Positions 1 through 64,000 are shown, counted from the stretch's first letter. The stretch is 64,000 bases of DNA from a virus (IMGVR_UViG_3300028925_005152:126-64125), one strand, 5' to 3'. Notes: generated by a model not told the origin, from the letters alone. A program made the numbers and translations.

Positions 1-703
1 TCTGCTTATCAATCTTCTTAACCTTCTTCTTAGCATAAGAATGTCCATGTGCATATCCTGTTTCTTTCTTATTCTTAGCACGCTTTACTCTCTGTTTCCT
101 ATTACGTTCTTCTTTTTTTTCTGGAGTCATCTTAGCCCATTTCTTATCATTCCTTTCCTTGTCTGATGACTTTCTTTCTTCTGGAGTCATCTTAGCACGC
201 CTTGCTCTCGAAGCTTCTCTCCTTTCCTTTAGATATTTTTCTTTTTCTTCTGGAGGCATATTATCATATCTTCCTTTATCATATGATGCCTTTATCTTTG
301 GGTCTTTCCTCGCATTTACTGATCTACCATCTGTATAACTTGGATTGTTCTTATCAGACATTGCTTCACTATGCTCTTTTCTTACAGTTTCATACATTCG
401 TGAAGTCATGATATCATCATATCTCTTACTGTTTCTCATACGATTGAGAGCAAATGCCATCTTATGTTTATAATACTGACCTTTTGCTATCTTTACCAAT
501 ATTCGATGTACAAGGAAATGTTCTCTGAGAGTTAGATATGCATAGTTATCTTCACTATCTGAGCCACCGAATGATTTAGGGATTATGTGATGTTTTTCAT
601 ATTTTTCAGGGCGTGGTCTATTCTTAGAGCGTTCTATGATCTTTAGATAGATTACTAGATACTTGTTGTCTATGAAAAATTGTTCTTGTTGTTCTTGTGT
701 CAT
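1..703 (-). CDS. HNH homing endonuclease-like protein, runs off window edge
   Basis: Hand-translated from ATG at 703: YEKHHIIPKSFGGSDSEDNYAYLTLREHFLVH (HNH motif), then a basic tail with repeated AKMTPE; no stop before base 1. Confidence 0.8.
   Translation of the reverse strand, partial: MTQEQQEQFFIDNKYLVIYLKIIERSKNRPRPEKYEKHHIIPKSFGGSDSEDNYAYLTLREHFLVHRILVKIAKGQYYKHKMAFALNRMRNSKRYDDIMTSRMYETVRKEHSEAMSDKNNPSYTDGRSVNARKDPKIKASYDKGRYDNMPPEEKEKYLKERREASRARRAKMTPEERKSSDKERNDKKWAKMTPEKKEERNRKQRVKRAKNKKETGYAHGHSYAKKKVKKIDKQ
121..196. repeat. Direct repeat ctggagtcatcttagc at 121-136 and 181-196 inside the HNH gene
   Basis: Exact 16-mer, 60 nt apart, in the repeated AKMTPE motif. Confidence 0.8.
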
Positions 704-741
704 ATTATAGTGTTTTCAGCCGCGGTCTCGACTGCTCTCGA

Positions 742-1365
742 TTATTCTTTGATTGATATCCATCCTGTGACAATGAACTTCTCCTCTGTAGGAGAGATAA
801 CTCCCCTATGAGTAAATGGAAAGTCAGATGGCCATATCATTGTTAAACCCTTCTCTGCTTTGATTGTTAAGTCTTGATACAGGAAAGCAGTTCCCCCTTG
901 ATCTTGTACTGTGTTTAGATAGGTCATGAAGACAAGGTATCTGTTGGATTGTGGAAACTGTCCAGTGAGTCTTTCACTATGCCATATTGGATAACCACCA
1001 CCAGCAGGATAATGTTGTATCTGGACAGGTTCAATATCAATAAAATCATATGATTCTAATACATCATATTTCTTACGATATTCACAAAGGATTTTATACA
1101 ACCAATTCATGTATTTCGTACAGAGAGGTACATTGTGATTCAATGTACAATCCATAGAATCTTTTATTTCTTTGTTGACACCAACCTTCCCATCACTATT
1201 CCAACTCACACCAGCCTGTCTATTAGGCGCAACCAAACTGTAATCAATGATTTCATCACAAAGCGTAGTATCAGTCATATACCACCCATTGATAAAATTG
1301 TTAGATTCATTCACAGCATGGGTTCTTGGATATCCAAAGTTAAATTTTAGTTTGTCATTCCTCAA
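742..1365 (-). CDS. 2OG-Fe(II) oxygenase
   Basis: IQHYPAGGGY-WHSE, FMTYLN-GGTAF, IWP-FTHRG, K-IVTGW motifs. Confidence 0.85.
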   Translation of the reverse strand: MRNDKLKFNFGYPRTHAVNESNNFINGWYMTDTTLCDEIIDYSLVAPNRQAGVSWNSDGKVGVNKEIKDSMDCTLNHNVPLCTKYMNWLYKILCEYRKKYDVLESYDFIDIEPVQIQHYPAGGGYPIWHSERLTGQFPQSNRYLVFMTYLNTVQDQGGTAFLYQDLTIKAEKGLTMIWPSDFPFTHRGVISPTEEKFIVTGWISIKE

Positions 1366-6078: not shown

Positions 6079-6510
6079 TTATCCTAACAAATAGTATCTG
6101 TTCTTCAAGTGTCGGGCAGAAATATCATCTTTAGACTGACCATGATATTCCACAGCGTGGTGTTCATCAACCAACATCTGATTGATAGACTTACGACCAC
6201 CGGAGGGTTCTAAACCTTGAATATCAACAGCTCTCCACAACTCACCAAGAATACGACCATACTTACCTTTATCGTCTTTCTTTGTCCTGAGAATGATACC
6301 ACCATCATGTGACAACATTTCTACTAGAAAATCTTTTGCCATCAGTCCGTATTTCTTTTCCACTAAGTCTCTGGTTCTTGATTCTGGCGTGTCTATACCA
6401 TACAATCTTATGCGTTCCTTGCGTAACCAAGTTCCAAAACCTAAATCTATATTTACGTCAACAGTATCACCATCAACCACTCTATCTATTTCGACTCTAT
6501 ATTCATACAT
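6079..6510 (-). CDS. SNase/thermonuclease-family nuclease
   Basis: RVVDGDT, RIRLYGIDTPE, KYGRILG; likely start MYEY at 6510. Confidence 0.88.
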   Translation of the reverse strand: MYEYRVEIDRVVDGDTVDVNIDLGFGTWLRKERIRLYGIDTPESRTRDLVEKKYGLMAKDFLVEMLSHDGGIILRTKKDDKGKYGRILGELWRAVDIQGLEPSGGRKSINQMLVDEHHAVEYHGQSKDDISARHLKNRYYLLG

Positions 6511-6529
6511 TTTCTTTCTTCCTTTTTTC

Positions 6530-6838
6530 CTAAACCGCGAAGGATTCTCCACAGCCGCAAGAAGCAGTAACATTTGGATTTTTAACGACCAAAGAAGCTC
6601 CAGCAAAACCTAACACATAATCAATAGTACAACCTTCCACCATTTTTTCTGCCAGTTTATCGACTAACAAAATGTTGTCAACCAATGTGCCGCCTGTATC
6701 GTCATTTACTAAATCCCAACAATACTGAAACCCAGAACAACCACCACCTTCAACAGACACACGAGCATAACGACCAGATAAACCTAATCCAATCATATCT
6801 TCTAAATACTCTTTTGCTGTTTCTGATATATTAATCAT
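6530..6838 (-). CDS. iscA: A-type Fe-S carrier (IscA/ErpA/HesB)
   Basis: GGGCSGFQY and NPN-SCGCGESF motifs. Confidence 0.93.
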   Translation of the reverse strand: MINISETAKEYLEDMIGLGLSGRYARVSVEGGGCSGFQYCWDLVNDDTGGTLVDNILLVDKLAEKMVEGCTIDYVLGFAGASLVVKNPNVTASCGCGESFAV

Positions 6839-9373: not shown

Positions 9374-10039
9374 TTATTTTCGTTTTTTCTTGGCAAGTTC
9401 ATTAGAAATCCATTGTTTTCCTACAGGATTTGACACTTTTGCCATTGCAAGTGACTTAATTTGCTTGTAAACAGGGGTCATTACATCTTCTTCTGTATCA
9501 TTATTGTCAACAACTACGAAATTGCGTTTAAAATATTGACTAAATTTACCAATATTAGACTGCACCTCTCTCCAAGACTTAATGACCATAGACTCTGGTA
9601 CACTACGAGCTCGTGCTTTGTTTCTTGCAAGTGCAGTATCCAGAGAAGTATTGACATAAATCATATGTACATCGTAACCAAGTTGTTTTAACTTTGTGGC
9701 TTCATCTGAAATCTTTGCAAAGTTTTTCCCTGTTCCATCAATAATTAAACCAAGTCTACCGTTTACATAATTTTTACCTTGAATTCCAGTAATTTTTTTT
9801 GCTTTGATACGAACATCGTCACGAGCATCGGATTCTTTATCAGGCATTTTTAAAGACAATTGAGCATCTTTCAAAAATTTCTCAAATGCAGGATCAGAGT
9901 TGACAGTCTTCAGACCTAGACCGCCAGTAGTTTGTCTTACAACATAAGACTTACCACTGCCCGGCCCACCGGCAAGAAAGAATGCTTTTAAAATATTAGG
10001 GTCATAGACACCCTCTTGCAATTCGTTAAATGAAATCAT
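9374..10039 (-). CDS. P-loop kinase (zeta-toxin/AAA_33-like) with capsid-targeting-like leader
   Basis: GGPGSGKS Walker A, IIDGT, ALARNKARAR lid; N-terminus MISFNELQE. Confidence 0.8.
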   Translation of the reverse strand: MISFNELQEGVYDPNILKAFFLAGGPGSGKSYVVRQTTGGLGLKTVNSDPAFEKFLKDAQLSLKMPDKESDARDDVRIKAKKITGIQGKNYVNGRLGLIIDGTGKNFAKISDEATKLKQLGYDVHMIYVNTSLDTALARNKARARSVPESMVIKSWREVQSNIGKFSQYFKRNFVVVDNNDTEEDVMTPVYKQIKSLAMAKVSNPVGKQWISNELAKKKRK

Positions 10040-10280: not shown

Positions 10281-11678
10281 TTAGTATGTAAGTTCTCTTA
10301 TTATACCTTCTTTGCCAAGAGGTTCTCCAGATTCCGAGCTTGGAGAATAACCTATTGAAAATGAATCTTTTGCTGCTGTTAAATAAATTTCGTGTTTTTT
10401 AGTTGTTTGGTCAAAACTGTGTCTTAATGTAGTAATTAAATAAATACCAGTAAATTGTGGATCGTTTTTGTTTTTATGTGTTTTACCAACTGTTGGAACT
10501 ACAATGTTTATCATATCCCCTGCAGCAATTGTAGTGTTACCTGTTATTTTTAAACTAACACTCACACCAGCTCTCAATTCCATAAATTTTGCTTGTCTTT
10601 TTAATATTGATTCGTTAATTTTATCTGGTGTATAACGATATGATAAAGTTTCATTTGTGTGTTGTGTGTCATATACACCATCTGTATTTACTGGATGCAA
10701 ATGTATTCTTGAATCAGAAAAATCTCCTATAGTATTTCCTAAAGCATCAATTGAACTTGTTCCAAAAACTGGATTAGACTGTTCACCCTCAAGTCTAGGA
10801 AACTCGTTAAAATTATCAAAATGTTTGTATTCTTTAGACGAGTAAGTCTTATTATATATATTATATTCAATAGTTTTAGAACCCAACATTCCACCTTGAA
10901 TGTTAGCTAACATATCATTATTTGAATTTACTTGAAAGTCTATTATTCTTAACATTTCTGTAAGTATTGATGCTTTTTTGCTTCCTTTCTCTAAGGGGCC
11001 TAGATCACTAGCAGAGTATGGGCCATGACTTGTACCTGTCATCATATGTTCTATAGTTTTAAAGTGAATGCCTTTAGTATTTTCAAAAAACATAAAATGA
11101 GGAGAGTTATATTCTTTTGATATAGCTTCAGTTGCAAGAGTAGTTATAAATTTAAAAGGATGAACATTTGGTGAAACAACTTTTCTGATACCCTGAGTTG
11201 GTTCAACAAACACATTTTTGTTGGTGTTGATGTATCGTTCGTCCTTTAATACATTAACAACAATATTACTAATATCGTCTGTGTAACTTTTTGACACTCT
11301 GGTACGTTTATCTTTTAGTGCTTCTGGTGTAGTAAAACTAAGATTTATAACTTGAGCATTAGAAGAAGCTTTGAACTTAGCAACTACTTTGTAAATACAA
11401 AATGTACTGTCAGTAAAGTCAATTTCTTGACCTTCTAAATTTGGTGTTGAAAGTTTCAATGACATAAATTCTTGACCAATGATTGGGCCATTAGCCGCGA
11501 TGTTATGAACATCTAAAATGGTGATAGAACCAGATAGTGAAGTTGAAAATATACTTTCATATATGTCAATAGCTTGAACTGAGTTTTTTAAATCTAGAAC
11601 ACTACCAGAACTAGTTTTTATTAACAATTCTTTTACTTCATATTTTCCAGCATAATTAGTTGATGTGGTAACCGACAT
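10281..11678 (-). CDS. Baseplate hub protein (gp27/late-control-D-like)
   Basis: IYESIF-LSGSITILD, FMFFEN-G-HFK, GIYLITTLRH motifs; next to gp53. Confidence 0.65.
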   Translation of the reverse strand: MSVTTSTNYAGKYEVKELLIKTSSGSVLDLKNSVQAIDIYESIFSTSLSGSITILDVHNIAANGPIIGQEFMSLKLSTPNLEGQEIDFTDSTFCIYKVVAKFKASSNAQVINLSFTTPEALKDKRTRVSKSYTDDISNIVVNVLKDERYINTNKNVFVEPTQGIRKVVSPNVHPFKFITTLATEAISKEYNSPHFMFFENTKGIHFKTIEHMMTGTSHGPYSASDLGPLEKGSKKASILTEMLRIIDFQVNSNNDMLANIQGGMLGSKTIEYNIYNKTYSSKEYKHFDNFNEFPRLEGEQSNPVFGTSSIDALGNTIGDFSDSRIHLHPVNTDGVYDTQHTNETLSYRYTPDKINESILKRQAKFMELRAGVSVSLKITGNTTIAAGDMINIVVPTVGKTHKNKNDPQFTGIYLITTLRHSFDQTTKKHEIYLTAAKDSFSIGYSPSSESGEPLGKEGIIRELTY

Positions 11679-12227: not shown

Positions 12228-13427
12228 TTAGAATCCTTGCTCTGCTTTTTCTCTGGTAACTAAATCTAATTCTTTAAAACTTAAAGTCATTGATGTTTCT
12301 ACTGGAACTGCATCTGCGTGAGTCTTATATTTATCTCCACCATACTTAACATCCATATTTGTAAGTACACAAGTTCCTATTTTATTCAAATTCATATTTT
12401 CCTCACCAAGATGCATATATTGAATGTCAAATGTTGCAGGAGTTGTTAGTTGCATTGAACCCGCACTTTTTATTTCTGGTAACATATACATTTTGAATGT
12501 CTTAACAATATTTTTTGCCATTTCAGCTTCTGCTGCACTTTTTGGCATCATTTTAAATTCGTATGAAAAATCTCTTTTAGGAATACCTTTAAATGCAAGT
12601 TCCATTCTAGGTGCTTTGATAAATCCTCTTTGCATTTCAAAAGCTGCGTTTGAACCAGCAAAGCCGGGAATTAAATCAATTGCTGATGTACCTCCTTTAA
12701 TTATTCCATCCCCTATAGCACCTGTTTGGTCTTTGAGTGCTTCTTTAGCAGAATCCATACTTGCAGTGCCAGCTAGAATTGATTGAATTGCTTCTACTCC
12801 CATTTTTGTACCTGTGCCCATTTCGGTATCTTGATAATCTGCACCATATTTTACATCAACACTTGGAGGCATGTACATACAGATAGATACTGGCATCCTT
12901 ACAGTTGCTTTTCTTTTTATACTAAGAGAATTATCTTTCACTGATGCCTTTTTGGCAGGTTTGATACCTTTTAAATCAGCAAGTCTTGCAGTAGCCCCAT
13001 TCGGATCTCTACGTTGTCTAATATCAGACTTTGTTCTGCTGAAAAAACCATCGGCTCTTTCGGTTTCAGCCATAGCTTGAGCAATTACAGGATCATCGGG
13101 TAAAACTGTCAATCCAGCTTCAAGTTTTTTGCGTGAATCTTGATAATCAAGAACTTCATCTGCTTGTTCGTTAACAAAAAATTGGATATAATGCCCCTGA
13201 TTACCATTAGCACCAGTAGGGCCTTCCAAATCAAGAGGAAATGTTAAATTTTGAGTACTGTATTTACCCCCGACTGCATTAGCAAAATCATTACTAGCAC
13301 CGCCTTTTTTACCACCTCGTATAGTATCTATGGCTGATTTTTTAAGAATACCAACGGCATTTTTAAAGACTCTGCCTGTTTGAGCTTCTGCAGCCCCGCG
13401 AACGGCATTATAGATATTTTTTGCCAT
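12228..13427 (-). CDS. 48: Baseplate tail-tube cap gp48
   Basis: MYMPP-V-Y, P-MELAFKG-RDFSYEFKMMPKS-EA, LSFKEL motifs. Confidence 0.85.
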   Translation of the reverse strand: MAKNIYNAVRGAAEAQTGRVFKNAVGILKKSAIDTIRGGKKGGASNDFANAVGGKYSTQNLTFPLDLEGPTGANGNQGHYIQFFVNEQADEVLDYQDSRKKLEAGLTVLPDDPVIAQAMAETERADGFFSRTKSDIRQRRDPNGATARLADLKGIKPAKKASVKDNSLSIKRKATVRMPVSICMYMPPSVDVKYGADYQDTEMGTGTKMGVEAIQSILAGTASMDSAKEALKDQTGAIGDGIIKGGTSAIDLIPGFAGSNAAFEMQRGFIKAPRMELAFKGIPKRDFSYEFKMMPKSAAEAEMAKNIVKTFKMYMLPEIKSAGSMQLTTPATFDIQYMHLGEENMNLNKIGTCVLTNMDVKYGGDKYKTHADAVPVETSMTLSFKELDLVTREKAEQGF

Positions 13428-13921: not shown

Positions 13922-14479
13922 ATGGCTAAAAGTAAATATATTCAAAGTGTTATAGATGCAACGAAAGGACGACCAAAATCTACTGATTGGTATCGTGAAA
14001 AGATCAAAGAGTTTGGAGAGCCAGGCGCCATGGATTTAATACGAGATGGAAAGCGTAACAATAGACCTTTCTATGGACGATTGAATATGTTCTTCTATGA
14101 CCCAAAATTCAAAAAGAAGTTACCTTACTACGATACATTTCCTTTGGTGTTACCAATAGAAAAATATCCAGATGGGTTTCTAGGTATTAACTTACACTAT
14201 CTGCCTATGAAGTTAAGACTTCAGTTGTTAGATAGATTAGTTGATTATAGTAACAATACTAAGTTTGATGAAAGTACAAGACTTGCAGTTGATTATAGTA
14301 AACTTAAAAAGATACAAATACTTAAACCAACACTTAAACGATATCTTGCTGGACAAGTTAAGTCACAGTTCCGTAGGATAGATGCAGATGAGTTTACAGT
14401 TGCAACACTGTTACCTGTGCAGAGATTTAAGAAAGCATCAGCCTCAGAGGTTTATGCAGACAGTAGGAAAATGATCTAA
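13922..14479 (+). CDS. 2: DNA end protector gp2
   Basis: FFYDPK-K-KLPYYDTFPL, GINLHYLP. Confidence 0.9.
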   Translation: MAKSKYIQSVIDATKGRPKSTDWYREKIKEFGEPGAMDLIRDGKRNNRPFYGRLNMFFYDPKFKKKLPYYDTFPLVLPIEKYPDGFLGINLHYLPMKLRLQLLDRLVDYSNNTKFDESTRLAVDYSKLKKIQILKPTLKRYLAGQVKSQFRRIDADEFTVATLLPVQRFKKASASEVYADSRKMI

Positions 14480-15201
14480 TGGCAGTCAACTTTAAAGGAC
14501 TTCGAGATGCAGTAGCATTTGGTGCATTAAATGAATTTCTTGCAACTTTCAATAGTGGTGATGGTTATTCAAGACCAAACCGCTATGAAGTTGTGATGAA
14601 ACCACCCTCTGGTACTTTGGGAAGTAATCAAGTAAGTTTATTTTCTCAACTTATGGGAGAAAAACACACAAACGACAGTAAAGCTGTTTCTTTAAGATGT
14701 GAAGCAATAGCATTTCCCGGCCGTAACATGGACACCACACCAGATTCAAATCTGTATGGCCCTGAAAGAGAACTTGTAACTGGTTATAGTTTCCCAGACA
14801 TTACTGCTACATTTCAATGTTCTTCTGATATGAGAGAAAAGTTATACTTTGAAACATGGCAAGGACTTACATTTAACCAACAAGACTTTTCTCTGGGTTA
14901 CTATGATGATTATACTGGTGAACTTGATATCGTTGCTTTAGACGAACAAGACAACAGAAGATATGGTGTCAGACTAAGAGAGTGTTTTCCTAAAGCTATT
15001 ACTGAACAACCACTTTCATATGCAAATGGTGCTAGTTATCAAACTGTATCAATTACTTTTGCTTATCGTTTTTGGGAAAATATGGAAGATGAAGCAAATC
15101 CAGTACACAAACCTCTATTAAACAGAGTAGCAGAAAATGCTGTAAGTACTGTATCAAGGTCTATTACTGCAAACTTACCAGCAGTACTACGCCGACTATA
15201 A
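14479..15201 (+). CDS. 54: Tail-tube-like baseplate protein (gp54/gp19 fold)
   Basis: G-SRPNRYEV, LRCE-FPGR, ECFPK, V-ITFAYR-W. Confidence 0.75.
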   Translation: MAVNFKGLRDAVAFGALNEFLATFNSGDGYSRPNRYEVVMKPPSGTLGSNQVSLFSQLMGEKHTNDSKAVSLRCEAIAFPGRNMDTTPDSNLYGPERELVTGYSFPDITATFQCSSDMREKLYFETWQGLTFNQQDFSLGYYDDYTGELDIVALDEQDNRRYGVRLRECFPKAITEQPLSYANGASYQTVSITFAYRFWENMEDEANPVHKPLLNRVAENAVSTVSRSITANLPAVLRRL

Positions 15202-41472: not shown

Positions 41473-41782
41473 TCAGCCCCGGCTTCTTATTTGCTAAGTG
41501 GGTTAGATTGTGTTTCTGTAATGTAGATCGGAGTTCATCTCCGTATTTTTCTGCTTGTTGCAAACTAGCTTGTAGTTTAGAATTTAGTTTTGCATTTTGA
41601 ACTGCACTTTCTTCAAGTGTCTTAACACTTGCTTCACTAATCTGCACAGCAACTTCTAGTTTTGCATTGTTTTCACGCAATGTCGCTATCGTTGCTTGAG
41701 TTGTATCATAGTAATACTTAGCACTCAAACCAGCAGCACTAATGATTCCCACTAAAATAATTATTGCATATAATTTAAACAT
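41345..41782 (-). CDS. Inner-membrane spanin (Rz-like)
   Basis: N-terminal TM, coiled coil, KPGLIE motif. Confidence 0.7.
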   Translation of the reverse strand: MFKLYAIIILVGIISAAGLSAKYYYDTTQATIATLRENNAKLEVAVQISEASVKTLEESAVQNAKLNSKLQASLQQAEKYGDELRSTLQKHNLTHLANKKPGLIEKRMQNATNKLWVDLTALTDNTVGVQHDEQVSAGIESNNSN

Positions 41783-45585: not shown

Positions 45586-46137
45586 CTATTGGTCAGCAAA
45601 ATCTGGAACAGTAGCACTTCCAACAAATCCAGACAAATGATATACTGTTGTAGAAACACCAGTAAGTGTGACTTCAAATCTATCTGGTAATCTAATACCT
45701 AAAATTGAATTTGAGTCATTGTCTGAAAAAGCAACTGCATTAGTGTTACCATCGGTGTCAAAATGTGTTAGACTACCTTTAAAGAATACACTATTATCAG
45801 TTGCAACAGTAGAAATGATAATATCATGTCCATCTGCAGCAGTATGTTGATACTGAAATTTAAAAACCATACCAGGCTTTGGTGCTGGTAGTTTAAAAGT
45901 TTTATCAGCAGATGAAATATCTGCAAATGTCAAAGTTCTATGAGCATGATCTGCTTCATTCAAGTTTTGGTTAGCGTTTGTTAACACAACAACACTATTA
46001 TTAGCATTGTAGTAATCACCAAGTGATTCCTTTTTGTTTAGTGGTGTTCCGCTTGGATTATCAATAAGGTGCAACAAGTCTTCTCTAGCAGCTGCAGTCC
46101 CCAAAGATGTTAAGGCGGTTAATTTTAAGTCGGCCAT
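45586..46137 (-). CDS. Virion structural protein, paralog 3 of array
   Basis: [10 protein letters not shown]...[18 protein letters not shown]. Confidence 0.7.
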
Positions 46138-47424: not shown

Positions 47425-48735
47425 TTAAGCGGCAGCAACATCAATACCATTTAAGATATTTGCAGAACCACTTGAAGTACCAGATTCTAAGAATGTAGCA
47501 GCATCACTCAATGCAGTTTCAACAACATATGGATCTGTAAATGTTGTTTTACCCTCTATGTTTCTAGTAGCGTTATCGCCAGTACCAAGAGAAGCAGCAT
47601 TGCCAGTTTCTTGTACAAGTTTAAAGTCTGTACCTTGACCACCACCTATTCCGTCTAAGTCTGTGGTTCCAACTTCTAGTTGGAGCGCAACACTATCGTC
47701 TTCACCAGTTCTTGTAATAGTTTTAACATCAGAACGAGTATCATACAATGGCCCACCAACTGTAAAGTCAAGTGAATCAGAGATGATTTCTTCACCACCA
47801 TTTGTGGAGGCAAGAAGAACAACATTGTCTGCAATTGTAACTGCTTCACTAACTGTAAAGGTTGTTTGGTTAGTAACAGTAGCAATCGTCAGAGTATTAT
47901 CAGTTGAAATACCTGTTTCTCCATCTGCATCAGTAATTGAAGCAGCAGGAGATCCACCAGCACCATTAACTGTGACAACCATACCAGCAACAAGTGTTGC
48001 ACCAGAAAGAGCATCTATAACAAAAGCGGTTGATGCGGTTATCGCACCAGCAACAGTAACAGATGTACAAGCACTTCCGTCTGCAATTAAACTACCACCA
48101 GAAGAACCAGCAGATGCGGTTCCAGATTCTAATCTAAGACCAATTGCAGATGCACCATCTTCTTCTGTCATGTTTGCGGTGCCGTCAAAGTTAATTCCTG
48201 TAATAACACCTGTATCACCAACACCTTCTCCGTTGAAGGCAAGGAAACCAGCTGCTGCGTTTGTTGCAGCTAAACCTCTAAACACAAGTTGGTTACTACC
48301 AGTACCAGAGAAGTACTGACAAGCCATTGTGCTATCTTCTACCATGTCAGTTTTACCAAGTCTTGATAATAGAATGTATGCTTTGTTTGTTATTGTTTGG
48401 TTTGCAGTTCGTGTAGCTGATGTAATATCTACAGCTTCATCAAATGTTACTGTTATGTCAAATGTTCCAACATTTCCAACTGTTTGATCTGTCCAATCAA
48501 TACCGATAATTGAAGCAGAACCCATAAATGCGGCAATGTTTTTGACACAAACCAGAACTTCTGGTGTTGCAGCAGTATTATCGTTTCCAGATGCGGCTAA
48601 GCCTGGAGTTAATCCCCAACCACCAGCTACTGCGATTGCGTGTTCTCTTGCTCCAGATGAACCGCCAGCATTACTATCGACTGGCAGAAACTTTGGTTTG
48701 TCTTCAGCGGCCGTTGTTGTTCCCCATAGACTCAT
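47425..48735 (-). CDS. Gly/Ala/Thr-rich virion structural (fiber/decoration) protein
   Basis: MSLWG N-terminus, beta-rich composition, late promoter TATAAATA at 48773-48780. Confidence 0.65.
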   Translation of the reverse strand: MSLWGTTTAAEDKPKFLPVDSNAGGSSGAREHAIAVAGGWGLTPGLAASGNDNTAATPEVLVCVKNIAAFMGSASIIGIDWTDQTVGNVGTFDITVTFDEAVDITSATRTANQTITNKAYILLSRLGKTDMVEDSTMACQYFSGTGSNQLVFRGLAATNAAAGFLAFNGEGVGDTGVITGINFDGTANMTEEDGASAIGLRLESGTASAGSSGGSLIADGSACTSVTVAGAITASTAFVIDALSGATLVAGMVVTVNGAGGSPAASITDADGETGISTDNTLTIATVTNQTTFTVSEAVTIADNVVLLASTNGGEEIISDSLDFTVGGPLYDTRSDVKTITRTGEDDSVALQLEVGTTDLDGIGGGQGTDFKLVQETGNAASLGTGDNATRNIEGKTTFTDPYVVETALSDAATFLESGTSSGSANILNGIDVAAA

Positions 48736-48781: not shown

Positions 48782-49294
48782 TTATTTGAAACCCAATCGT
48801 TTCAATTCGTTAATTGTTTTAGAAACATTAGTGTGATGTATTGCTATTCCACCCTTTGCTTCCCATTCTCTGATATTTTTAATATAGTCATCAATAAGAA
48901 TATTTGGTTTGCCAGCAGTCATAGCATATGCCTGTTTCTGTGAACGATTAACCAAATGTATTTTACCTCTAGGAAACTTAGTGTTTTTAGAGATCCACTT
49001 CATTTTGCCAGGCTTAGAGTTTGAGTCCCTACCAGAGGCAGCTGAAAGAATATGTGCATCATATTTAATAATGATTTGATACATTCTTTTAGCGCCAGAC
49101 ATCCAATCTAAATCAGCCCAAAAATCTTTTGTATTGGAAATTTCTTTCCACTTTTCTTCTTTGTTGCTCTTTACAAATCCACCAGTAACTTCATCGGCTC
49201 TTTTCATAAAGTTGCATAAAACTTGATCCATGTCGCAGTAAATCGGAGGCAATTCATCTTTACTTACTTCCGTTAATTGCTTTAAACTTTTCAT
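48782..49294 (-). CDS. HAD-superfamily 5'(3')-nucleotidase-like phosphatase
   Basis: IYCDMDQVL, ILSA, GKMKW, ILIDD-KNI-EW-GG; leader MKSLKQLTE. Confidence 0.85.
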   Translation of the reverse strand: MKSLKQLTEVSKDELPPIYCDMDQVLCNFMKRADEVTGGFVKSNKEEKWKEISNTKDFWADLDWMSGAKRMYQIIIKYDAHILSAASGRDSNSKPGKMKWISKNTKFPRGKIHLVNRSQKQAYAMTAGKPNILIDDYIKNIREWEAKGGIAIHHTNVSKTINELKRLGFK

Positions 49295-49354: not shown

Positions 49355-50410
49355 TTAATTTTTCTTTTCTTTCATATCAGGTTCTATGTCAACTTTAGTC
49401 ATAGGTTTGCCTGTCATAGTTTTAGTTTCTTTCTTAGCATCTTTTTCTTCTTTCTTAGCATCTTCTAATTTCTTAAATGGGTTGTGTCCTTCATCAACAC
49501 CCCACATCTTAGACATGATTTCACGCATAGATGAATTTTTCTTCTGCATTGCACCAACTGTTTCATTCCACAATTCCTCAGACTGGCCCGGAGTTGTGTC
49601 TAGTGTGTGTTTTGTGCGTTCTGGTGTACCAGCTTCAAAAGATTCTTTCTTCTCGTTGTCACCTTCCCAACCAGCATCAATAGCATCGTAGAATTTCTTC
49701 TTATCGTCACCCTTTAATTCTGATGGAGATTTAACACCAAACTTTTTCATAGTAGCATTAAAGAACTTTTGATATTCTTCTTTTCCACCAGATGCTTCCT
49801 GAACTTCTTCTTTCTTAGGAGCAACATGGTCGTATCCCATCTTCTTCATTCTTAGATGGTCAGCCATAGTGTCTGCTTTAAACCCTTTACCAGTTTTTGG
49901 GTCATACATCATGTGAGGTTTGAACTCATCTGCTTCTTCTTTGATGCCAGTGTCGTATAACTTCTTGCCGTCACTATCTTTAAGAGTAGTTGCGTCATGT
50001 GGATTAAATTTATCATTACCTTCATTCTGTTTTCTTATAACAGCTGTAACTTTAGGGTCTTTAGACAATCCTTTTTTAATTTTTTCAATTGCACTCATAG
50101 CACCTGTCATATTACCACCAGCATATCTTTTATCTGATGCAATACCGATTGCCATCTTAATTTCTTTTGGCGAGAATGCTTCATCAAGTTCAACTTCTTC
50201 CATAAGGTAAGCATCAACTCCAGCTGTACTTTTAAGTCTTTTCATCTGTGCAAACTTTTTTGCAGCATCATATGAAGTTTTTGCTTTAATGACCTCTTTA
50301 CCTTTTGTAGCATGAACTACTGTGTATGTTCTTTCCTCATCAAGTTTACCACCAACTGCGGCCTTAATTGCTTCCTCAAGACTACCTGTTTTTGTATCAA
50401 AATATGCCAT
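49355..50410 (-). CDS. Modular head-internal-like protein
   Basis: Short basic modules separated by LDE/VELDE/IKEE. Confidence 0.65.
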   Translation of the reverse strand: MAYFDTKTGSLEEAIKAAVGGKLDEERTYTVVHATKGKEVIKAKTSYDAAKKFAQMKRLKSTAGVDAYLMEEVELDEAFSPKEIKMAIGIASDKRYAGGNMTGAMSAIEKIKKGLSKDPKVTAVIRKQNEGNDKFNPHDATTLKDSDGKKLYDTGIKEEADEFKPHMMYDPKTGKGFKADTMADHLRMKKMGYDHVAPKKEEVQEASGGKEEYQKFFNATMKKFGVKSPSELKGDDKKKFYDAIDAGWEGDNEKKESFEAGTPERTKHTLDTTPGQSEELWNETVGAMQKKNSSMREIMSKMWGVDEGHNPFKKLEDAKKEEKDAKKETKTMTGKPMTKVDIEPDMKEKKN

Positions 50411-52327: not shown

Positions 52328-54937
52328 CTATCCCTTCATTAAATCGGTTACAGATTTGCCAGACCAAAACTTGCAAGACCAATATCCTGCTGTAGTTTTA
52401 TCTTTTTTCTGATCGCAATTGTGTCTAGCTCTGAATGCTTTTCTTCTTTCTGGGTCATCTCGTTTGATTTCCATATTTGGATCACCAAATTCTACCTTGA
52501 CCACATTTCCTTTATCATTTTTAACATAGACTTTGTATTTCTTAACATCACCTTTTGTGGGATTATTAAGTTCTTTACCACTATTCTTGTCGGTTTCTGT
52601 TATTTCACCCCAACTATTTAGGGATTCTGATTGGTTGACTTTAAAACTTGCGGCTAGTTCTTTCGGTAATTTCTTCTGAACAACTAATTTGTTAATATAT
52701 GCAACTAAAGCTCTTGCATCTATCTTTGTTTTAAACTGTTTAACCGCAGTTGCAGCAGCATTACTGTGAGTTTTTTGTGGATTATCCCTTACTAACTCTG
52801 CATATCTTTTAACAACTGCGTCATATTCTTGTGGATGAGAGATTTTGTAAATTGCATCAAATACCATCTTACCTAAAGTTTTTTCTGATATTTCTGTTTC
52901 CTCTGGAACACAGTTTGGTACTTGTTTGCCACCTTTTGTTTTCATACCAACTTGTTTAAAACCATCCCAACAAGGATTTTCTTCGGTGACACAATCATCA
53001 CAGCATATTTCTACTGATTCTCCACGAACTTGTTTTGCAAGGTCAGCATCTGCTTTGCCCCATGTACCCGCAGACTTAGTAGCAAAAGAGTTAACTCTTG
53101 CAAATGCCCATTGTTGTGGAGTTGTGCCGGGCCGATGTCCTGTCTTCCATGCAGCCATTCCTCTATCGTATACTTTCTTCAGAATGCTGTATGACATACC
53201 AGTTTTTTTAGCTTTCTTTGTAAGAGCTTCTATTGCTTCTGTGGTCAGTTCTTCACCAGCAGCAAAAGGGCCTCCAGTACCAAGTACTTCGTGTCCTTTT
53301 TTATTTTTCTTAGGAATCATACCATAGTCGGTTGCTTCATTCTTTGATAAAAATGCAGCGATTGCCATTTCTTTGCGTTTTTCTTTAGACTTACCTTTAA
53401 ACTGTGGAGAATCAGACTTCTCGAAATCATCAATGTAATCACCCATGTCTGCGTCTTTACCAAGAACTTCATTTATTTTAGAAGTATCGGTTGCCATAAA
53501 TGGGCCTCTTCTAATAGTTTTAAATGGAAGTTTAACTTCATTACCAAAGATTTCTTTTGGATGAATAATATTAAATGTAACTATTTCAGTAGAGTTGTTA
53601 ATTTTTACCAACTCCATGTCTATTTCTTTATATACTTTACCTTTAAATTTAAGACCATGTGCAGTTACAAGTTTCTGAACCTTACCACGAGAATTGACTG
53701 CTTGTTTTGCTCTTACTTCATCTATAGAGGCCTCACCATACATTTTCTTAAAGTCTTTAGTGTGAGTAGATAGTTTAGTTTTAGCTGATGCATCGCCGGG
53801 CGCTGGCCCTGCTTTCTTTTTGTTGAAGTGTGCGGCACGTTTGTCTTTAGTAGACTTTGCCATATCACTATAATACTTTGCGGGTTGAGTACCTTTCTTA
53901 TCTTTAATCTCTTTGTCTTGTTTTACTTCTCTTAATCTTGGTTCTCTACGATTCTTTGATGGGTCTTCCATTTTCAAATTAGAGGGGTCATTGTTTAGAG
54001 GATTATTGTCTTTATGTCCTACATCTTTACCCTCTACTGCTTTGTCACCCATAATTCTACGAGCTTTGTTTCTTGAAGAGCGTCTTGCAATCTGTTCTGG
54101 TGTTCCTTGATAATTTGCGTATTCTTTTTTATAGTCTCGTTCTACTATATCGTGTAACCAAGTCTTATGCACTTTACCATCTTCTGATACAAATGTTAAA
54201 TAGTTTGTACCTTTGTTAATAACTTTACCTTCGTGACCATGAGATTCTACAATATCACCCACATTCCAAAGTTTGCCGGTAAGATACAAATCTCTGAGTG
54301 TTTCAAAGTCTGTCATCTCACCCATATCTCGTTCTTCACGAATGCCCATATTCTTACGAACATCGTTATAGAGTTTTAGTGAATCTTTAAAGGTAGACGG
54401 AACACCAGTTTTGAATGAATCGAAATCACCAGAAGATGCTGCAGCTCGCATCTTAGACGCAGACATACCCGAAACACCTTCTGCGTCTGGGTCGCGTTCA
54501 CCAGCAGACACAACTTTGATATCATCAAAACTATAAAAACCATGTTTAGAATCTACACCATTATATTTATTGAGGAGAGTATTAAACTCTGTGACTCTAT
54601 CAGAACCAACAACCATTACAATAGAACGATGTCTTTTTTTGTGTAACTCTACTGCGGCTTCAAGAGCAGTTCTTGATTTGCTTACTGTGATATTGCCTTT
54701 ATATTTTGGAAACATTTTCCTCATATATGCAATTTTTAGTGCATGAGGTAATGGGTCTTTCTTAGCGTTTTGCGAATGTGATGGATACACATACATCGCA
54801 GAACCAGCGTTATTAGATTGTTGTTTTGCAAGTGCATCTATGAGTTTTTCGTGGCCCGTAGTCGGTGGATTGAATCTACCAAAGGTAAATACAGCTATAT
54901 CCCCACGAACCTCTACAATATCTCTAAAATTTTTCAT
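52328..54937 (-). CDS. Cytidylyltransferase-like (HxGH) polyprotein with HNH-like and other modules
   Basis: FGRFNPPTTGH, VVGSDR, SAGERDPD, MSASKMR; DVGHKDNNPLNN-SNL; leader MKNFRDIVE. Confidence 0.8.
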   Translation of the reverse strand: MKNFRDIVEVRGDIAVFTFGRFNPPTTGHEKLIDALAKQQSNNAGSAMYVYPSHSQNAKKDPLPHALKIAYMRKMFPKYKGNITVSKSRTALEAAVELHKKRHRSIVMVVGSDRVTEFNTLLNKYNGVDSKHGFYSFDDIKVVSAGERDPDAEGVSGMSASKMRAAASSGDFDSFKTGVPSTFKDSLKLYNDVRKNMGIREERDMGEMTDFETLRDLYLTGKLWNVGDIVESHGHEGKVINKGTNYLTFVSEDGKVHKTWLHDIVERDYKKEYANYQGTPEQIARRSSRNKARRIMGDKAVEGKDVGHKDNNPLNNDPSNLKMEDPSKNRREPRLREVKQDKEIKDKKGTQPAKYYSDMAKSTKDKRAAHFNKKKAGPAPGDASAKTKLSTHTKDFKKMYGEASIDEVRAKQAVNSRGKVQKLVTAHGLKFKGKVYKEIDMELVKINNSTEIVTFNIIHPKEIFGNEVKLPFKTIRRGPFMATDTSKINEVLGKDADMGDYIDDFEKSDSPQFKGKSKEKRKEMAIAAFLSKNEATDYGMIPKKNKKGHEVLGTGGPFAAGEELTTEAIEALTKKAKKTGMSYSILKKVYDRGMAAWKTGHRPGTTPQQWAFARVNSFATKSAGTWGKADADLAKQVRGESVEICCDDCVTEENPCWDGFKQVGMKTKGGKQVPNCVPEETEISEKTLGKMVFDAIYKISHPQEYDAVVKRYAELVRDNPQKTHSNAAATAVKQFKTKIDARALVAYINKLVVQKKLPKELAASFKVNQSESLNSWGEITETDKNSGKELNNPTKGDVKKYKVYVKNDKGNVVKVEFGDPNMEIKRDDPERRKAFRARHNCDQKKDKTTAGYWSCKFWSGKSVTDLMKG

Positions 54938-58830: not shown

Positions 58831-59203
58831 CCTCTGCTTGAGTTATAATAATATGGTATAGAATATCTCCAATAAGTTTAAAGAAATCTTCTCCAAACTT
58901 TTCTTTGTCGTATCCATTGTTCTCTATTATATCATATTTAAACTCTAAACGCAATGCCTCTCCATCAACTATTTTAGATTCATCTGGAATAGTGACTTGG
59001 CCATACTTATAGACGACACCAGAATAATCTGTTTCATCTGTAAGACCAATGCAAGTAACATCTGGTTCTTCTTTGGTGTTAAGAAAAAGAAATTTCTTTG
59101 TGATGGGGTCTTGTAGAATTTGTTCTACTGTTGGTAAACTAGTAGGTGCATCAGCAGTTTTACTTCTAATTGGTTGACCGAATTGGTCTAATAACTCAGA
59201 CAT
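58784..59203 (-). CDS. gp40-like protein
   Basis: Lies between uvsX and 41, as gene 40 does in T4; YKYG-V, F-YDI, IGDIL. Confidence 0.45.
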   Translation of the reverse strand: MSELLDQFGQPIRSKTADAPTSLPTVEQILQDPITKKFLFLNTKEEPDVTCIGLTDETDYSGVVYKYGQVTIPDESKIVDGEALRLEFKYDIIENNGYDKEKFGEDFFKLIGDILYHIIITQAEDGSIDEPNDRTDSVK

Positions 59204-59744
59204 ATTTTAAATAACTCCCTAATATATATTTTGGTTTATTGACTGGTTTTTCTCCAGCATGTAGCCAAGGCCACAACGGTGGAAACATTAATAGTGTTCC
59301 CTTCTTGCACTCTGATGTTATATCCATTTGTGGAAACATAGTTGAACCACTATCGTTGTTATCTAGATATAAAAAGAAGCTAAGAAATCTTTTGCAAGTA
59401 TTTGAATCTTTGGAATCAACATGAGGCCCGAATTGGTCAACATCATCTGGTAAATACCGTTTTATTCTAAATGATTCAACTGAGTATTTATTGGGCCACA
59501 TTACTGGCTCAATCTTGCAATCCTTTTTGTATGTCGCGACATTTTGCTTAAAAATATCTACAAGGTACATAATGTCTTTGTTCCAGACTTGTGTGTCTGG
59601 ACGCATCATTTCAAGGTGTGTTAAAGACATTAAGCCCTGAGATAGTTTCTCTTGATGTTCTGGGTGGGATTCAAACTTTTCAATCAAACCATCACAGAAA
59701 TCATCGGTCACTACATTGTCATACTTTCTAATATAGTTATCCAT
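59196..59744 (-). CDS. 2OG-Fe(II) oxygenase
   Basis: RIKRY, HVD, FLYLD, FPPLWPWLHAG, KYI. Confidence 0.85.
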   Translation of the reverse strand: MDNYIRKYDNVVTDDFCDGLIEKFESHPEHQEKLSQGLMSLTHLEMMRPDTQVWNKDIMYLVDIFKQNVATYKKDCKIEPVMWPNKYSVESFRIKRYLPDDVDQFGPHVDSKDSNTCKRFLSFFLYLDNNDSGSTMFPQMDITSECKKGTLLMFPPLWPWLHAGEKPVNKPKYILGSYLKYV

Positions 59745-61230: not shown

Positions 61231-61953
61231 CTATTTAATTGCAATTGCACCAACGAACATATGATTTCTCCAGAAGGGTTGAACCTCTTGAAATCCTGCC
61301 ATTAGTAACATTTCTTGTATCTCTGCCCATGTATTTGGTTTCATCATTGAACGCAAAGTAACTTCTTTATTCATAATATCATCTGTAGTAAATGATTTTC
61401 TTTTGTGGTCATAATAATTAAATGTCAACATATCTTGATGTCTTGCTGATTCGCAGATTGTCTTTTCTGCAAAAATATATGCACCACCATCATTAAGACC
61501 TTCCCAAATGGAGTCAATAACATTCTGTCTATCCTTCTTGGGCATAAACTGTAAAGTAAAGATAGATGTTACTAGTGATGCGTTTTTAATTATTGTGTTG
61601 CGAATGTCCTGCTGATGAAAGTATACCTTTGTTTTACTACTTTCACCCACACCTAACAATTGTCTGACAGTCTTATTTATTTCTGCGTGACGCAGTTTAA
61701 GTTCTTCTTGAAACCCATCAGCAATCTCAATACCATACCATTTTGCATTAGTACAATGGTCAAAATTAGCTTCAACCAATCTCTGTGTCATTTTGCCAGT
61801 AGAACACCCAATATCATAAACATTAGTATCGTTCTCAACAAAATGTCGTGATAGTGACACCACATCATCAAGCAAGTAACTGTAACCACGAATTGATTTG
61901 TCAATATGTTCATCGAAACCTTCTTCTCTGTGTGCAAATGTAAAATCAACCAT
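61231..61953 (-). CDS. cmoA: CmoA-like carboxy-SAM synthase
   Basis: FD-HI-SI-GY, VYDIGCSTG, FTLQF, L-GG-IFAEK, AGF-V-FW; likely start MVDF. Confidence 0.8.
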   Translation of the reverse strand: MVDFTFAHREEGFDEHIDKSIRGYSYLLDDVVSLSRHFVENDTNVYDIGCSTGKMTQRLVEANFDHCTNAKWYGIEIADGFQEELKLRHAEINKTVRQLLGVGESSKTKVYFHQQDIRNTIIKNASLVTSIFTLQFMPKKDRQNVIDSIWEGLNDGGAYIFAEKTICESARHQDMLTFNYYDHKRKSFTTDDIMNKEVTLRSMMKPNTWAEIQEMLLMAGFQEVQPFWRNHMFVGAIAIK

Positions 61954-63142
61954 TATATTTCTCCAATACTTTCTCATAAACAGATGTTGCAATTTTTTCC
62001 ATCATAATCGGGGGAACCATTCTTCCTATCCTCTCAGATTTCTGATTCCACTTACCTGTAAGCTTGAAATCATCTGGTAGTGATTGTATTCTTTTTAGTT
62101 CACCTAGTGTCAGCTTGCGTGGTTCAATCCAATGAAATGCACCAGCAGTTGTATCAGCACTACCCATTGCAGTTAAAGTTGGTGCTGGCGCATATTGCGA
62201 CACACGTTTTAGATTGAAGTGGTGTCCTTTAGGGTGATAATCACCGCCAGTAAGAACCTTTTCGGGGTCAATTGGCATAATACTTCCTGTTTGTTTCCAG
62301 TATGCAGTATTAGTAAACTTCTCGGTTAGATATTTTACTTCTTCTTTATCATATTCTAAATCAATCATTACATCTTTTACTGGAATAGTCTCACGACTTG
62401 GTTCTGGAAATATGCTTGATAGGGTCATAAAGTTCAATCCTACAGCTTCAGCAACATCCTCACGAACCGCAATAAAGATAACCCTTGTTCTGGTTTGTGA
62501 TACTCCATAATACCTACTATCTAGAACTTGGGCACAGACATCATACCCAATACTCTCAAAGGTTTTTAGAATCTTGTTATACATCTGACGAGCTTCACCG
62601 ATAGTCAATCCTTTTACATTCTCTGCAATAATTACTTTAGGTTTGATTTCTTCTGCAATACGCAGAAACTCAAAAAACAAGTCTTCGATGTTTTCTACAG
62701 TCTTACCATCAGAATAATTCTTAGTCTGATTCCACCCATCACTATGTTTTCCACTGACCTTTTCAAGAGTGACATTTCCAAAAAGGTCGACTCGTTCTTC
62801 TTCGAGTGAATTGTGTGATAACTTACCCGCCACAGAGAATGCAGAACATGGTGGACTTCCATCTAGGATATCAATCTCACCTACACCGACACCTGCCGCA
62901 TCTAAAAAGTCTTGGCCAGTGAGTGCTTTAATGTCTCCAGATAAAATTGGTGTGTCTGGATAGTTTTCTTTGTAAGTATTTACAGCTTCTTCAACGAACT
63001 CATTGACGCAAAGAACTTTACCACCCGCAAGACGGTAGCCTGTGGAACTGCCACCACCTCCTGCAAAGGTGGAGATGACTTTAAATTTTTCTTGTGCAGA
63101 CGCATCATATACGTCTTTTAAATTATATGGTTTATATTTCAT
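61946..63142 (-). CDS. C5-cytosine DNA methyltransferase-like enzyme
   Basis: FAGGGG, GSPPC, ENV, Q-R-R, RIQSLPD-F, GRMVPP. Confidence 0.9.
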   Translation of the reverse strand: MKYKPYNLKDVYDASAQEKFKVISTFAGGGGSSTGYRLAGGKVLCVNEFVEEAVNTYKENYPDTPILSGDIKALTGQDFLDAAGVGVGEIDILDGSPPCSAFSVAGKLSHNSLEEERVDLFGNVTLEKVSGKHSDGWNQTKNYSDGKTVENIEDLFFEFLRIAEEIKPKVIIAENVKGLTIGEARQMYNKILKTFESIGYDVCAQVLDSRYYGVSQTRTRVIFIAVREDVAEAVGLNFMTLSSIFPEPSRETIPVKDVMIDLEYDKEEVKYLTEKFTNTAYWKQTGSIMPIDPEKVLTGGDYHPKGHHFNLKRVSQYAPAPTLTAMGSADTTAGAFHWIEPRKLTLGELKRIQSLPDDFKLTGKWNQKSERIGRMVPPIMMEKIATSVYEKVLEKYNG

Positions 63143-63960
63143 TATTTCATAAATCCTTCTAGTGTTGATGTATTATTTAGCATGCTCCAATCACGACAAA
63201 TATCCATCACCCTTGTCCTATTTTTAAAATTGATTTCTTTATTATCAATTAATTTATCGAACAAGTCTATTATACCAGAATCTATCTGTAAGTTCAAGTG
63301 TTTTTTCACATTTCCTATCAATTTAAATTCATCAAACGCATTTCTTACATGGTGCTTTTGAAGGGGCTTATTCAGTTCGTCCCAACTCTTACTATAAAAG
63401 AATTGTTTAACTGAATCGTCAAGGTATGGTGTAATAAATATTTTTCTATGGGCATCAGATACTTTTTTGTGCCAGATATAATTTGCACACTTATCAGGCT
63501 TAAAGTAATTATCCCTAAACTCATCAAATAATTCTTGTGTGTGTTTGTAATTAATTTGAGCCTTTTTACTAATTCCATAGTATCCATCTGCGGCCCAACC
63601 TGAAATAACATATTTCTGTGATATTTGAGGATAAACATACAAAAAGGCGTAAGTACATTCTACACTTGTTTTAGATTTGCAACCAAGTTCGATTAGTCTG
63701 TGAAAGTCTTTAACTAGATTATTAGTTGGAATTATAATTTCAGTAAATTTCCAATCAAATTGTTTTGCAATTTCTTTGGCCTTTTCAAAATCGTAAGAGG
63801 TGTGAGTATCCAAACGAAAACTATATGCATGATTTTTTTTACCTAAGTTAGCAGCTGCAAAGGCTACTGATATAGAATCAACACCGCCAGATAGCAAGAC
63901 GGCAATCTCACTATCTGGTGCGTTCTTTTCAATATGATTTTCTAAAAGGGTTTTAATCAT
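63142..63960 (-). CDS. Asparagine-synthase-like ATP-dependent amide ligase
   Basis: LLSGGVDS PP-loop, SG-AD-G, PYLD, K-VRNAF; no glutaminase domain. Confidence 0.8.
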   Translation of the reverse strand: MIKTLLENHIEKNAPDSEIAVLLSGGVDSISVAFAAANLGKKNHAYSFRLDTHTSYDFEKAKEIAKQFDWKFTEIIIPTNNLVKDFHRLIELGCKSKTSVECTYAFLYVYPQISQKYVISGWAADGYYGISKKAQINYKHTQELFDEFRDNYFKPDKCANYIWHKKVSDAHRKIFITPYLDDSVKQFFYSKSWDELNKPLQKHHVRNAFDEFKLIGNVKKHLNLQIDSGIIDLFDKLIDNKEINFKNRTRVMDICRDWSMLNNTSTLEGFMK

Positions 63961-64000
63961 GCAACTAATTGTTCCATATAATCATTCAAGCTCATAGTTC

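Follow-up and report, generated by a model that had tools for sequence, protein, structure and literature searches.

The closest described counterpart of the locus reported here is the CmoA-CmoX-CmoY system of Synechococcus phage S-B43 (Yang et al., Nat Commun 2025, PMC12783734). SpCmoX of that phage, a DNA cytosine C5-carboxymethyltransferase, draws on carboxy-S-adenosylmethionine (Cx-SAM) supplied by the phage CmoA; the wild-type enzyme accepts Cx-SAM only. CmoY ligates glycine to the carboxymethylated cytosine (5cxmC), giving 5gcxmC, which was found in virion DNA. A GC motif proved necessary for SpCmoX, both in nanopore mapping and in assays on oligonucleotides; approximately 75% of GC sequences in virion DNA were modified, and SpCmoX-modified DNA resisted HhaI. 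A screen of IMG/VR by the same authors yielded 5,615 candidates. The present analysis concerns a homologous cassette in the window, i.e., 64,000 of the 64,125 bases of the IMG/VR viral contig IMGVR_UViG_3300028925_005152 (positions 126-64125), together with a pattern of restriction site avoidance in which GGWCC is absent and CCNGG persists only in a GCC context.

The window carried the same three adjacent genes as S-B43, at 55% identity for CmoA (238 aligned residues; the S-B43 partner is the gene adjoining cmoX, reported as CmoA in PMC12783734), 58% for CmoX (391 aligned residues, against SpCmoX) and 45% for CmoY (262 aligned residues, against SpCmoY). The catalytic SPPC motif and the carboxylate-binding Arg were common to both CmoX proteins, and the published GC target matches the flank that accompanies the surviving sites of the window. 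The two systems differed in gene order (Y-X-A in the window, A-Y-X in S-B43), in phage lineage (Melnitz-like, as against a Synechococcus phage) and in specificity, the window footprint hinting at GC followed by a pyrimidine (GCY) as against any GC for S-B43. Unlike the window, S-B43 avoided neither CCNGG nor GGWCC in the 100 kb examined. The cassette is a further member of the family published in 2025 and of an already known kind.

The 5mYOX methyltransferase (MT)/TET cassettes carry out post-replicative cytosine C5 modification in GpC, and their C5-methyltransferases (C5-MTs) mainly recognize GpC[C/T] (Burke et al., 2021, PMC8256090). In the phage Melnitz such a cassette occupied the equivalent slot upstream of MazG-RecA and was found with the same footprint as in the window. 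The chemistries differ, being methylation followed by hydroxylation in MT/TET and, as predicted, carboxymethylation followed by amide ligation in the window; the Melnitz enzyme was 38.6% identical to that of the window and had Leu in place of the CmoX Arg. A search of all 64,125 bases of the contig gave no Tet_JBP (PF12851) match, ruling out a TET dioxygenase in the window. M.CviPI, the GpC-specific C5-MT of a chlorovirus (PMC8256090), is likewise an orphan enzyme of viral origin and targets the GpC cytosine, as predicted for the window CmoX. It is a SAM-dependent methylase, whereas the Arg by which SpCmoX holds the carboxymethyl group is present in the window enzyme, a comparison made by description only.

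Classical restriction site avoidance in phage genomes (Rusinov et al., 2018, PMC6286503) consists of short palindromes depleted relative to Markov and codon-preserving nulls, as was seen in the window. Unlike the classical form as described there, avoidance in the window was flank-conditional, the condition apparently being the phage's own modification motif; unrecodable sites were found repositioned into that context, and the dipeptide that forces the site was itself depleted. Recoding into a modifiable context, one rule under two chemistries and dipeptide depletion are the features of this conditional footprint. A literature search outside subscription journals and supplements returned no prior report of it, and the main-text portions covered of PMC12783734, of PMC8256090 and of the Melnitz paper describe no such footprint.

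Avoidance of CCNGG and GGWCC

Expected site counts were taken from a maximal-order Markov model and from 300 synonymous-codon shuffles that kept every protein sequence and per-gene codon usage; 200 such shuffles provided the expectations for CCNGG split by reading frame. The gene calls for shuffling were crude, consisting of the longest non-overlapping open reading frames (ORFs). There were 91 of these, covering 94.5% of the window, and 81 were on the minus strand. The G+C content of the window was 35.7%.

The window contained 20 CCNGG sites. All 20 were in-frame Pro-Gly pairs, Pro-Gly being the sole reading frame in which synonymous change cannot abolish CCNGG, and all 20 had a G at position -1 or a C at position +1, with both present at 10. 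Sites outside a GCC context (HCCNGGD) were absent, against 29.1 ± 3.9 expected from codon shuffles, while GCCNGGC was observed 10 times against 0.5 expected. In the Pro-Gly frame there were 20 sites with GCC (5.5 expected) and none without (14.5 expected). In the other frames there were none with GCC (6.0 expected) and none without (14.1 expected). Because GCC-flanked CCNGG was purged even from recodable frames, the GCC context appears to be a second-best rescue and not full immunity. CCWGG was found five times against 32.3 expected from codon shuffles.

Codon choice at the 20 sites departed from that of the genome. The Gly codon was GGC at 18 of the 20 sites (genome share 10%), the Pro codon was CCC or CCG at 15 (genome share 14%), the pair CCC-GGC was used at 10, and the third base of the preceding codon, directly before the site, was G at 12. 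On the plus strand, the sites with their preceding codons were 14021-14025 (GAG CCA GGC), 14716-14720 (TTT CCC GGC), 17756-17760 (ATT CCC GGC), and 17906-17910 (CAG CCA GGC). On the minus strand they were 9960-9964 (GGG CCG GGC, with G to the left and C to the right), 12664-12668 (ATT CCC GGC), 21838-21842 (GAT CCC GGC), 22368-22372 (TTG CCG GGC), 25472-25476 (TTT CCC GGC), 25904-25908 (ACG CCC GGC), 26060-26064 (TTG CCC GGC), 30052-30056 (TAT CCC GGC), 43595-43599 (GTG CCG GGC), 48602-48606 (ACT CCA GGC), 49008-49012 (AAG CCT GGC), 49587-49591 (ACT CCG GGC), 53127-53131 (CGG CCC GGC), 53796-53800 (GCG CCC GGC), and two sites whose GCC arose through the preceding G only, 41478-41482 (AAG CCG GGG) and 45872-45876 (AAG CCT GGT).

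Neither GGACC nor GGTCC occurred in the window, and none of the 161 occurrences of GGAC or GGTC was followed by C. The expected number of GGWCC sites was 29.5 under the Markov model and 34.9 ± 4.0 under the codon shuffles, in which the minimum was 24. GGSCC was observed 42 times against 17.3 expected from codon shuffles. All 30 Gly-Pro pairs used GGC or GGG, which together made up 16% of all Gly codons in the window.

The original prediction, made by eye, had claimed that GGAC and GGTC never precede C, that GGCCC and GGGCC are common, that Gly-Pro is always encoded with GGC or GGG, and that CCNGG occurs only in a GCC context, with CCC-GGC frequent. The counts bear out each of these statements, GGWCC and non-GCC CCNGG being absent and far below expectation under the codon and Markov nulls, and the example coordinates it gave were correct to within one base. 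It had also proposed restriction at GGNCC/GGWCC with survival of protected sites. The purge of GGWCC was real, but no protection need be invoked to explain GGNCC: a GGWCC-specific host enzyme, to which GGSCC is irrelevant, fits as well as a GGNCC enzyme blocked at GGSCC via its internal GCC.

Pro-Gly itself was underrepresented. The observed/expected ratio (O/E), computed from amino acid frequencies, was 0.46 for the window and 0.62 for Melnitz, and contigs that avoid CCNGG gave 0.44 and 0.49; the ratio was 0.94 in S-B43 and 1.07 in control contigs, where CCNGG was not avoided. Gly-Pro, which can be fixed synonymously, was no lower than in controls. Comparison of orthologous Pro-Gly positions was too sparse: three control-contig positions aligned to the window, with other residues there at all three; window versus S-B43 gave two positions, and Melnitz versus S-B43 gave 15 versus 25, again too few.

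Flank Dependence of the Surviving Sites

Other sites were depleted in the window relative to codon shuffles. These included: CGWCG (0 observed, 28.6 expected), GATC (67 and 179), ACGT (26 and 125), TCGA (66 and 146), CTTAAG (1 and 13.3), and the asymmetric sites GTCTC (17 and 58), CTCTTC (2 and 30.6), TCCGC (1 and 21.5), and GCAGTG (2 and 13.7). The Markov model agreed with the codon shuffles on the depletion of short palindromes. Depletion of multiple sites is what restriction by several enzymes usually leaves behind.

An unbiased scan of all 4-, 5-, and 6-base palindromes with the four possible flanks (256 tests) revealed that the five strongest flank signals in the window were all G(-1)/C(+1). 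This flank accompanied CCNGG at 20 of 20 sites (p = 7e-12), GCGC at 23 of 25 (p = 3e-11), and CTGCAG at eight of eight (p = 3e-5). CCGG had it at 25 of 32 sites, partly as a by-product, as 15 of the 32 sit within CCSGG, and GGCC at 40 of 73, partly as a by-product of the recoding of Gly-Pro to GGS-CCN. CATG and CTAG, which were not depleted by codon shuffles, showed no enrichment of this flank. The surviving restriction sites were confined to G(-1)/C(+1) contexts, which is indirect evidence, compatible with a GC target and hinting at GCY.

GCGC, in which the internal C precedes a G, survived in the window as GCGCC (23 sites) or GCGCT (two sites); none of the 25 GCGC sites in the window, and none of the 64 in Melnitz, was without a GCY context. 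CTGCAG, whose internal GC is GCA, survived only with a flanking G that creates GCT, i.e., with G at -1 or C at +1, at 10520-10525 and at sites starting at 13388, 21085, 45834, 46092, 51378, 54439, and 59818. Palindromes with an internal GCY had a median O/E of 1.12 in the window, with z below -3 in none of 11; where GC was present solely as GCR or at the site end, the median O/E was 0.61; and those without GC had a median O/E of 0.90, with z below -3 in 11 of 61. The GCY grouping, which was picked after seeing the data, gave Mann-Whitney p = 2e-4 in the window and 0.03 in Melnitz. These patterns suggest, as a hypothesis and not a result, that modification in vivo is effective at GC when a pyrimidine follows, and more so at GCC than at GCT.

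Motifs reported as modified in marine viral genomes include CCNGG and GGWCC, the commonest being RGCY (Hiraoka et al., 2022, PMC8919816); the listing of CCNGG and GGWCC indicates that these sites matter in that environment. RGCY itself was rejected as the target in the window, since purines were not preferred at -2: in rescued sites, the base preceding the G was distributed as in the background.

The CmoA-CmoX-CmoY Cassette

The cassette lay on the minus strand of the window. The gene at 61946-63142 (PF00145, E = 3.8e-56) encodes a CmoX homologue and predicted DNA cytosine C5-carboxymethyltransferase. The gene at 61231-61992 (Pfam Methyltransf_25), which overlaps the 3' end of cmoX, encodes a CmoA homologue and predicted carboxy-SAM synthase. 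The gene at 63142-63960 (Asn_synthase, PF00733, E = 1.1e-13) encodes a CmoY homologue, predicted to be an asparagine-synthetase-like, ATP-dependent amide ligase of the PP-loop ATPase type.

The best solved relative of the window CmoX was SpCmoX (PDB 8YF3, E = 4e-140). The stretch DGSPPCSAF aligned to the same stretch of SpCmoX, where the catalytic Cys is Cys-98, and ..ERIGRMVPP.. of the window aligned to ..ERVGRMVPP.. of SpCmoX and ..GNAVP.. of M.HaeIII, so that the carboxylate-binding Arg was kept. Mapped by hand from the alignment, SpCmoX residues F25, E47-F48, D69, C98 (SPPC), and R350 were all conserved. R350 of SpCmoX, which corresponds to Asn-304 in M.HhaI, contacts the carboxymethyl group of Cx-SAM (PMC12783734).

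The original prediction had placed a C5 enzyme of the phage at 61946-63142. Its cytosine C5 fold was confirmed, but, judged by homology, it most likely transfers carboxymethyl groups, in concert with CmoA and CmoY, and is not a plain methylase; very probably it is CmoX. The further claim, that the footprint predicts the target of this enzyme, agrees with the literature in that the GC/GCC context deduced coincides with the GC motif measured for its homologue SpCmoX.

Footprint and Cassette in Related Phages

The window comes from a marine, T4-like myophage that belongs to the Melnitz group. The contig was approximately 42% complete (CheckV), and the nearest cultured relatives of the window were the Melnitz myophages of Methylophilales (OM43), where 18% of a 14-kb query aligned at 76.6% nucleotide identity. 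Pfam matches in the window included a family B DNA polymerase, gp32, a UvsX/RecA-like protein, and a DnaB-type helicase, as well as T4 baseplate proteins, T4 RNase H, and a class II ribonucleotide reductase.

Melnitz, a Methylophilales phage with a complete genome of 141,548 bases (L082-L084), had CCNGG in a GCC context at 72 of 72 sites. GGWCC was absent against 60.7 expected, Gly-Pro was encoded with GGS in 47 of 47 cases, and the G(-1)/C(+1) flank was present at 14 of 14 CTGCAG and 15 of 15 CCGG sites. Melnitz avoids CCGG, and the Pro codon of its Pro-Gly pairs was CCA or CCT in 67 of 70. The window and Melnitz accordingly solve the same dipeptide in opposite ways, with CCC/CCG in the former and CCA/CCT in the latter; speculatively, this difference suggests an extra CCWGG-type pressure on the window lineage.

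CmoX was absent from Melnitz, which instead had a C5-MT gene followed by a gene for a Tet_JBP protein (43 bits, against a cut-off of 34.9). These MT and TET genes (L082, 4010-6194) occupied the same slot upstream of MazG-RecA as CmoY-X-A in contig L006 (8129-10858), which belongs to the window's own lineage and has the gene order RimK, hypothetical, CmoY, CmoX, CmoA, MazG, and RecA. In the Melnitz paper the C5-MT gene is called simply a type II methylase; its TET neighbor is annotated as hypothetical. Motif X of the Melnitz C5-MT (L082, 4010-5227) reads GLMVAP, with Leu at the position that is Asn in canonical C5-methylases and Arg in CmoX.

Four sites depleted in the window were plentiful in Melnitz (GTCTC, 134 copies; CTCTTC, 96; TCCGC, 28; GCAGTG, 46). 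Lacking from Melnitz instead were CGCG, AACGTT, GGTACC, and GTGCAC. This suggests that the window phage and Melnitz face different host restriction repertoires.

A set of 80 IMG/VR contigs with CmoX 65-100% identical to that of the window was also examined. Pooled by band of CmoX identity, CCNGG stood in a GCC context at 81 of 85, 62 of 63, and 15 of 18 sites. Five contigs with CmoX 82% identical (L039-L042 and L069) formed a natural control. GGWCC and CCWGG were at expectation in the three longest of these, L039 and L041 being too short to tell. In the control contigs, 34 of 52 Pro-Gly pairs were without a GCC context and 20 of 25 Gly-Pro pairs used GGW; CCNGG was flanked at 23 of 71 sites, the chance level, and GCGC at 15 of 16. 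The avoided core varied by lineage while the flank was constant, which fits a core set by host enzymes and a flank set by phage modification. In contigs L071-L079 (CmoX approximately 70% identical) GATC was absent against 13-56 expected per contig, whereas in the window it was merely reduced (67 versus 179-237).

S-B43, of which 100 of 214 kb were examined, had three CCGG sites against 58.2 expected. It was rejected as a positive control and served as a neutral comparator only, since CCNGG and GGWCC were not avoided there.

Interpretation of the Footprint

We consider it likely that the footprint reflects restriction avoidance combined with rescue by GC(Y)-directed C5 hypermodification. The proposal builds on the counts and their nulls, on homology with conserved catalytic residues, and on the replication of the pattern in relatives. 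Selection would purge several Type II sites, GGWCC and CGWCG fully and CCNGG wherever synonymous change permits, with restriction partially purging GATC, ACGT, TCGA, CTGCAG, CTTAAG, and some asymmetric sites; host enzymes would supply this pressure. Judging from homology to the S-B43 system, CmoA would make carboxy-SAM, CmoX would carboxymethylate C5 of cytosine after G, in GC(Y) of the phage DNA, and CmoY would add glycine to give 5gcxmC. The unrecodable Pro-Gly CCNGG would be kept as GCCNGG on at least one strand, where the outer C is the GpC cytosine and may carry the bulky group, to the hindrance of the restriction enzyme. The same rescue may apply to CTGCAG in the form GCTGCAG and to GCGC in the form GCGCY, and GGSCC would either be no target or be masked via its internal GCC. 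The footprint was all-or-none and lay far outside both nulls.

Several points weigh against this account. The phage is known from contig sequence alone, and the contigs of its relatives are homologous regions of related phages and not independent samples. SpCmoX acts on GCG and its product is protected from HhaI (PMC12783734), whereas, going by the footprint, GCG and GCA are without effective protection in the window phage. This would mean a changed specificity at 58% identity, an efficiency in vivo that varies with the base 3' of GC, or an error in the GCY refinement. The GCY class was a post hoc choice. The simpler rule that any internal GpC protects was not borne out, palindromes with and without internal GC showing no significant difference (p = 0.064 in the window and 0.63 in Melnitz). 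Some sites containing GCY were still depleted, such as AGCT (O/E 0.71 by codon shuffles in the window; 0.62 in Melnitz). Protection would be partial at best, given the loss of GCC-flanked CCNGG from recodable frames (0 versus 6.0). The characterized phage S-B43 itself is without the rule in the 100 kb examined, with 134 CCNGG and 61 GGWCC sites and a weak flank signal (GCGC flanked at 15 of 25). No restriction enzyme with specificities that fit came to light, the search for a host by way of serine hydroxymethyltransferase was uninformative, and no published data were found on a C5 adduct at the outer C blocking CCNGG enzymes.

The flank rule might instead come from the restriction enzymes themselves, as pure avoidance with no modification, if these effectively recognized HCCNGGD or cleaved G/C-flanked sites poorly. 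Flank effects on cleavage rate are well known for Type II enzymes, and flank enrichments of other cause do exist in Melnitz (TCGA with G/C, ACGT with A/T). Yet one and the same flank, G before and C after, recurred at the unrelated CCNGG, CTGCAG, GCGC, CCGG, and CTTAAG, so that several distinct enzymes would need a common dislike. It was not the reverse, C before and G after, the 20 Pro-Gly pairs of the window having GGC 18 times and GGG once, and it makes the outer C a GpC, the published target of SpCmoX and of Melnitz-type methyltransferases (PMC12783734, PMC8256090). This explanation is accordingly judged unlikely. Bias in codon pairs, translation or mutation toward G+C-rich codons at Pro-Gly and Gly-Pro, e.g., through tuning of ribosome pausing, has in its favor that all sites concerned are coding and lie at these dipeptides. 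The control contigs, which share phage group and gene set with the window, use CCT-GGT, CCA-GGA, and the like, with 34 of 52 Pro-Gly pairs without GCC and 20 of 25 Gly-Pro pairs as GGW, and it is because of these ordinary codons that codon bias can be excluded. The third base of the preceding codon was also biased to G (12 of 20), CCNGG and GGWCC were gone from the other two frames (CCNGG 0 versus about 20 expected), and the rule held at CTGCAG and GCGC; such a bias is, in our assessment, extremely improbable.

A different selective agent could be site-specific nucleases encoded by the phage to degrade host DNA, as in chloroviruses, with the phage lacking or masking the sites. Many sites were avoided although the hosts of the Melnitz group are genome-streamlined bacteria (Melnitz paper), just approximately 42% of the genome is in the contig, and the minus strand of the window encodes a staphylococcal nuclease homologue (SNase, 6079-6606), a PD-(D/E)XK nuclease (20600-21286), and a SegE-like GIY-YIG endonuclease (30088-30570). 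These three were not recognizable as Type II restriction enzymes, and a Pfam scan of 50 ORFs of the window gave no hit to a Type II restriction enzyme family, a scan that left out ORFs 2-703, 48782-49294, and 49355-50410, opposite-strand nested ORFs, and ORFs below 150 amino acids. The avoided sets, moreover, differed among close relatives, as between the window and Melnitz or in the loss of GATC confined to L071-L079, and L040, L042, and L069 did not avoid CCNGG. Since the avoided sets differ among relatives, varying host repertoires are the easier fit, and we give little credence to phage nucleases as the agent.

Returning to avoidance with rescue by hypermodification, a broader proposal is offered tentatively, as one that could prove wrong in part. 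Flank-conditional avoidance may be a general readout of the modification target from plain sequence; in this lineage, GC-directed hypermodification, whether by CmoX or by MT-TET, and avoidance may evolve together; unrecodable sites may have been moved into GCY; specificity in vivo (GCY) may be narrower than GC in vitro; and a residual restriction cost may halve the frequency of Pro-Gly.

Other Genes in the Window

A full-length serine hydroxymethyltransferase (SHMT; PF00464, E = 1e-143), whose products are glycine and methylene-tetrahydrofolate, was encoded at 25069-26229 on the minus strand. Speculatively, it could feed glycine to the ligation onto DNA predicted for CmoY. Its best cellular matches, at 51-56% identity, were from gut Bacilli, Tenericutes, and Bacteroidales, and were uninformative on the host.

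Three small separate 2OG-Fe(II) oxygenase genes were on the minus strand (742-1365, 27591-28265, and 59196-59744), and two further ones were upstream, in L006; none of the five matched Tet_JBP. A block at 34211-39335 (minus strand) contained a CHASE2-adenylate/guanylate cyclase, two ORFs without a Pfam family, a FecR-domain protein, and a homologue of the curli protein CsgG, and this curli/cyclase block has an annotated counterpart in Melnitz. Also on the minus strand were a small SAM-methyltransferase-fold protein (Methyltransf_23, 29520-30113), which overlaps the GIY-YIG gene, and a Zeta-toxin/AAA_33-like kinase (9374-10039).

Implications

Mapping C5 modifications of cytosine is difficult, and few marine phages are in culture. 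If the proposed account is true, plain sequence would reveal both the sites that are restricted and the bases that a phage enzyme modifies, and a flank scan of the thousands of CmoX- and TET-type contigs would yield a modification motif and a restriction repertoire for each phage. The footprint yields a testable prediction of enzyme specificity, GCY versus GC, and cleavage of modified DNA by PstI would depend on the flank (GCTGCAGC versus ACTGCAGT). Through Pro-Gly depletion, restriction pressure would reach the composition of phage proteins. Carboxymethyl- or glycyl-cytosine would then serve in nature as a partial protection against specific Type II enzymes.

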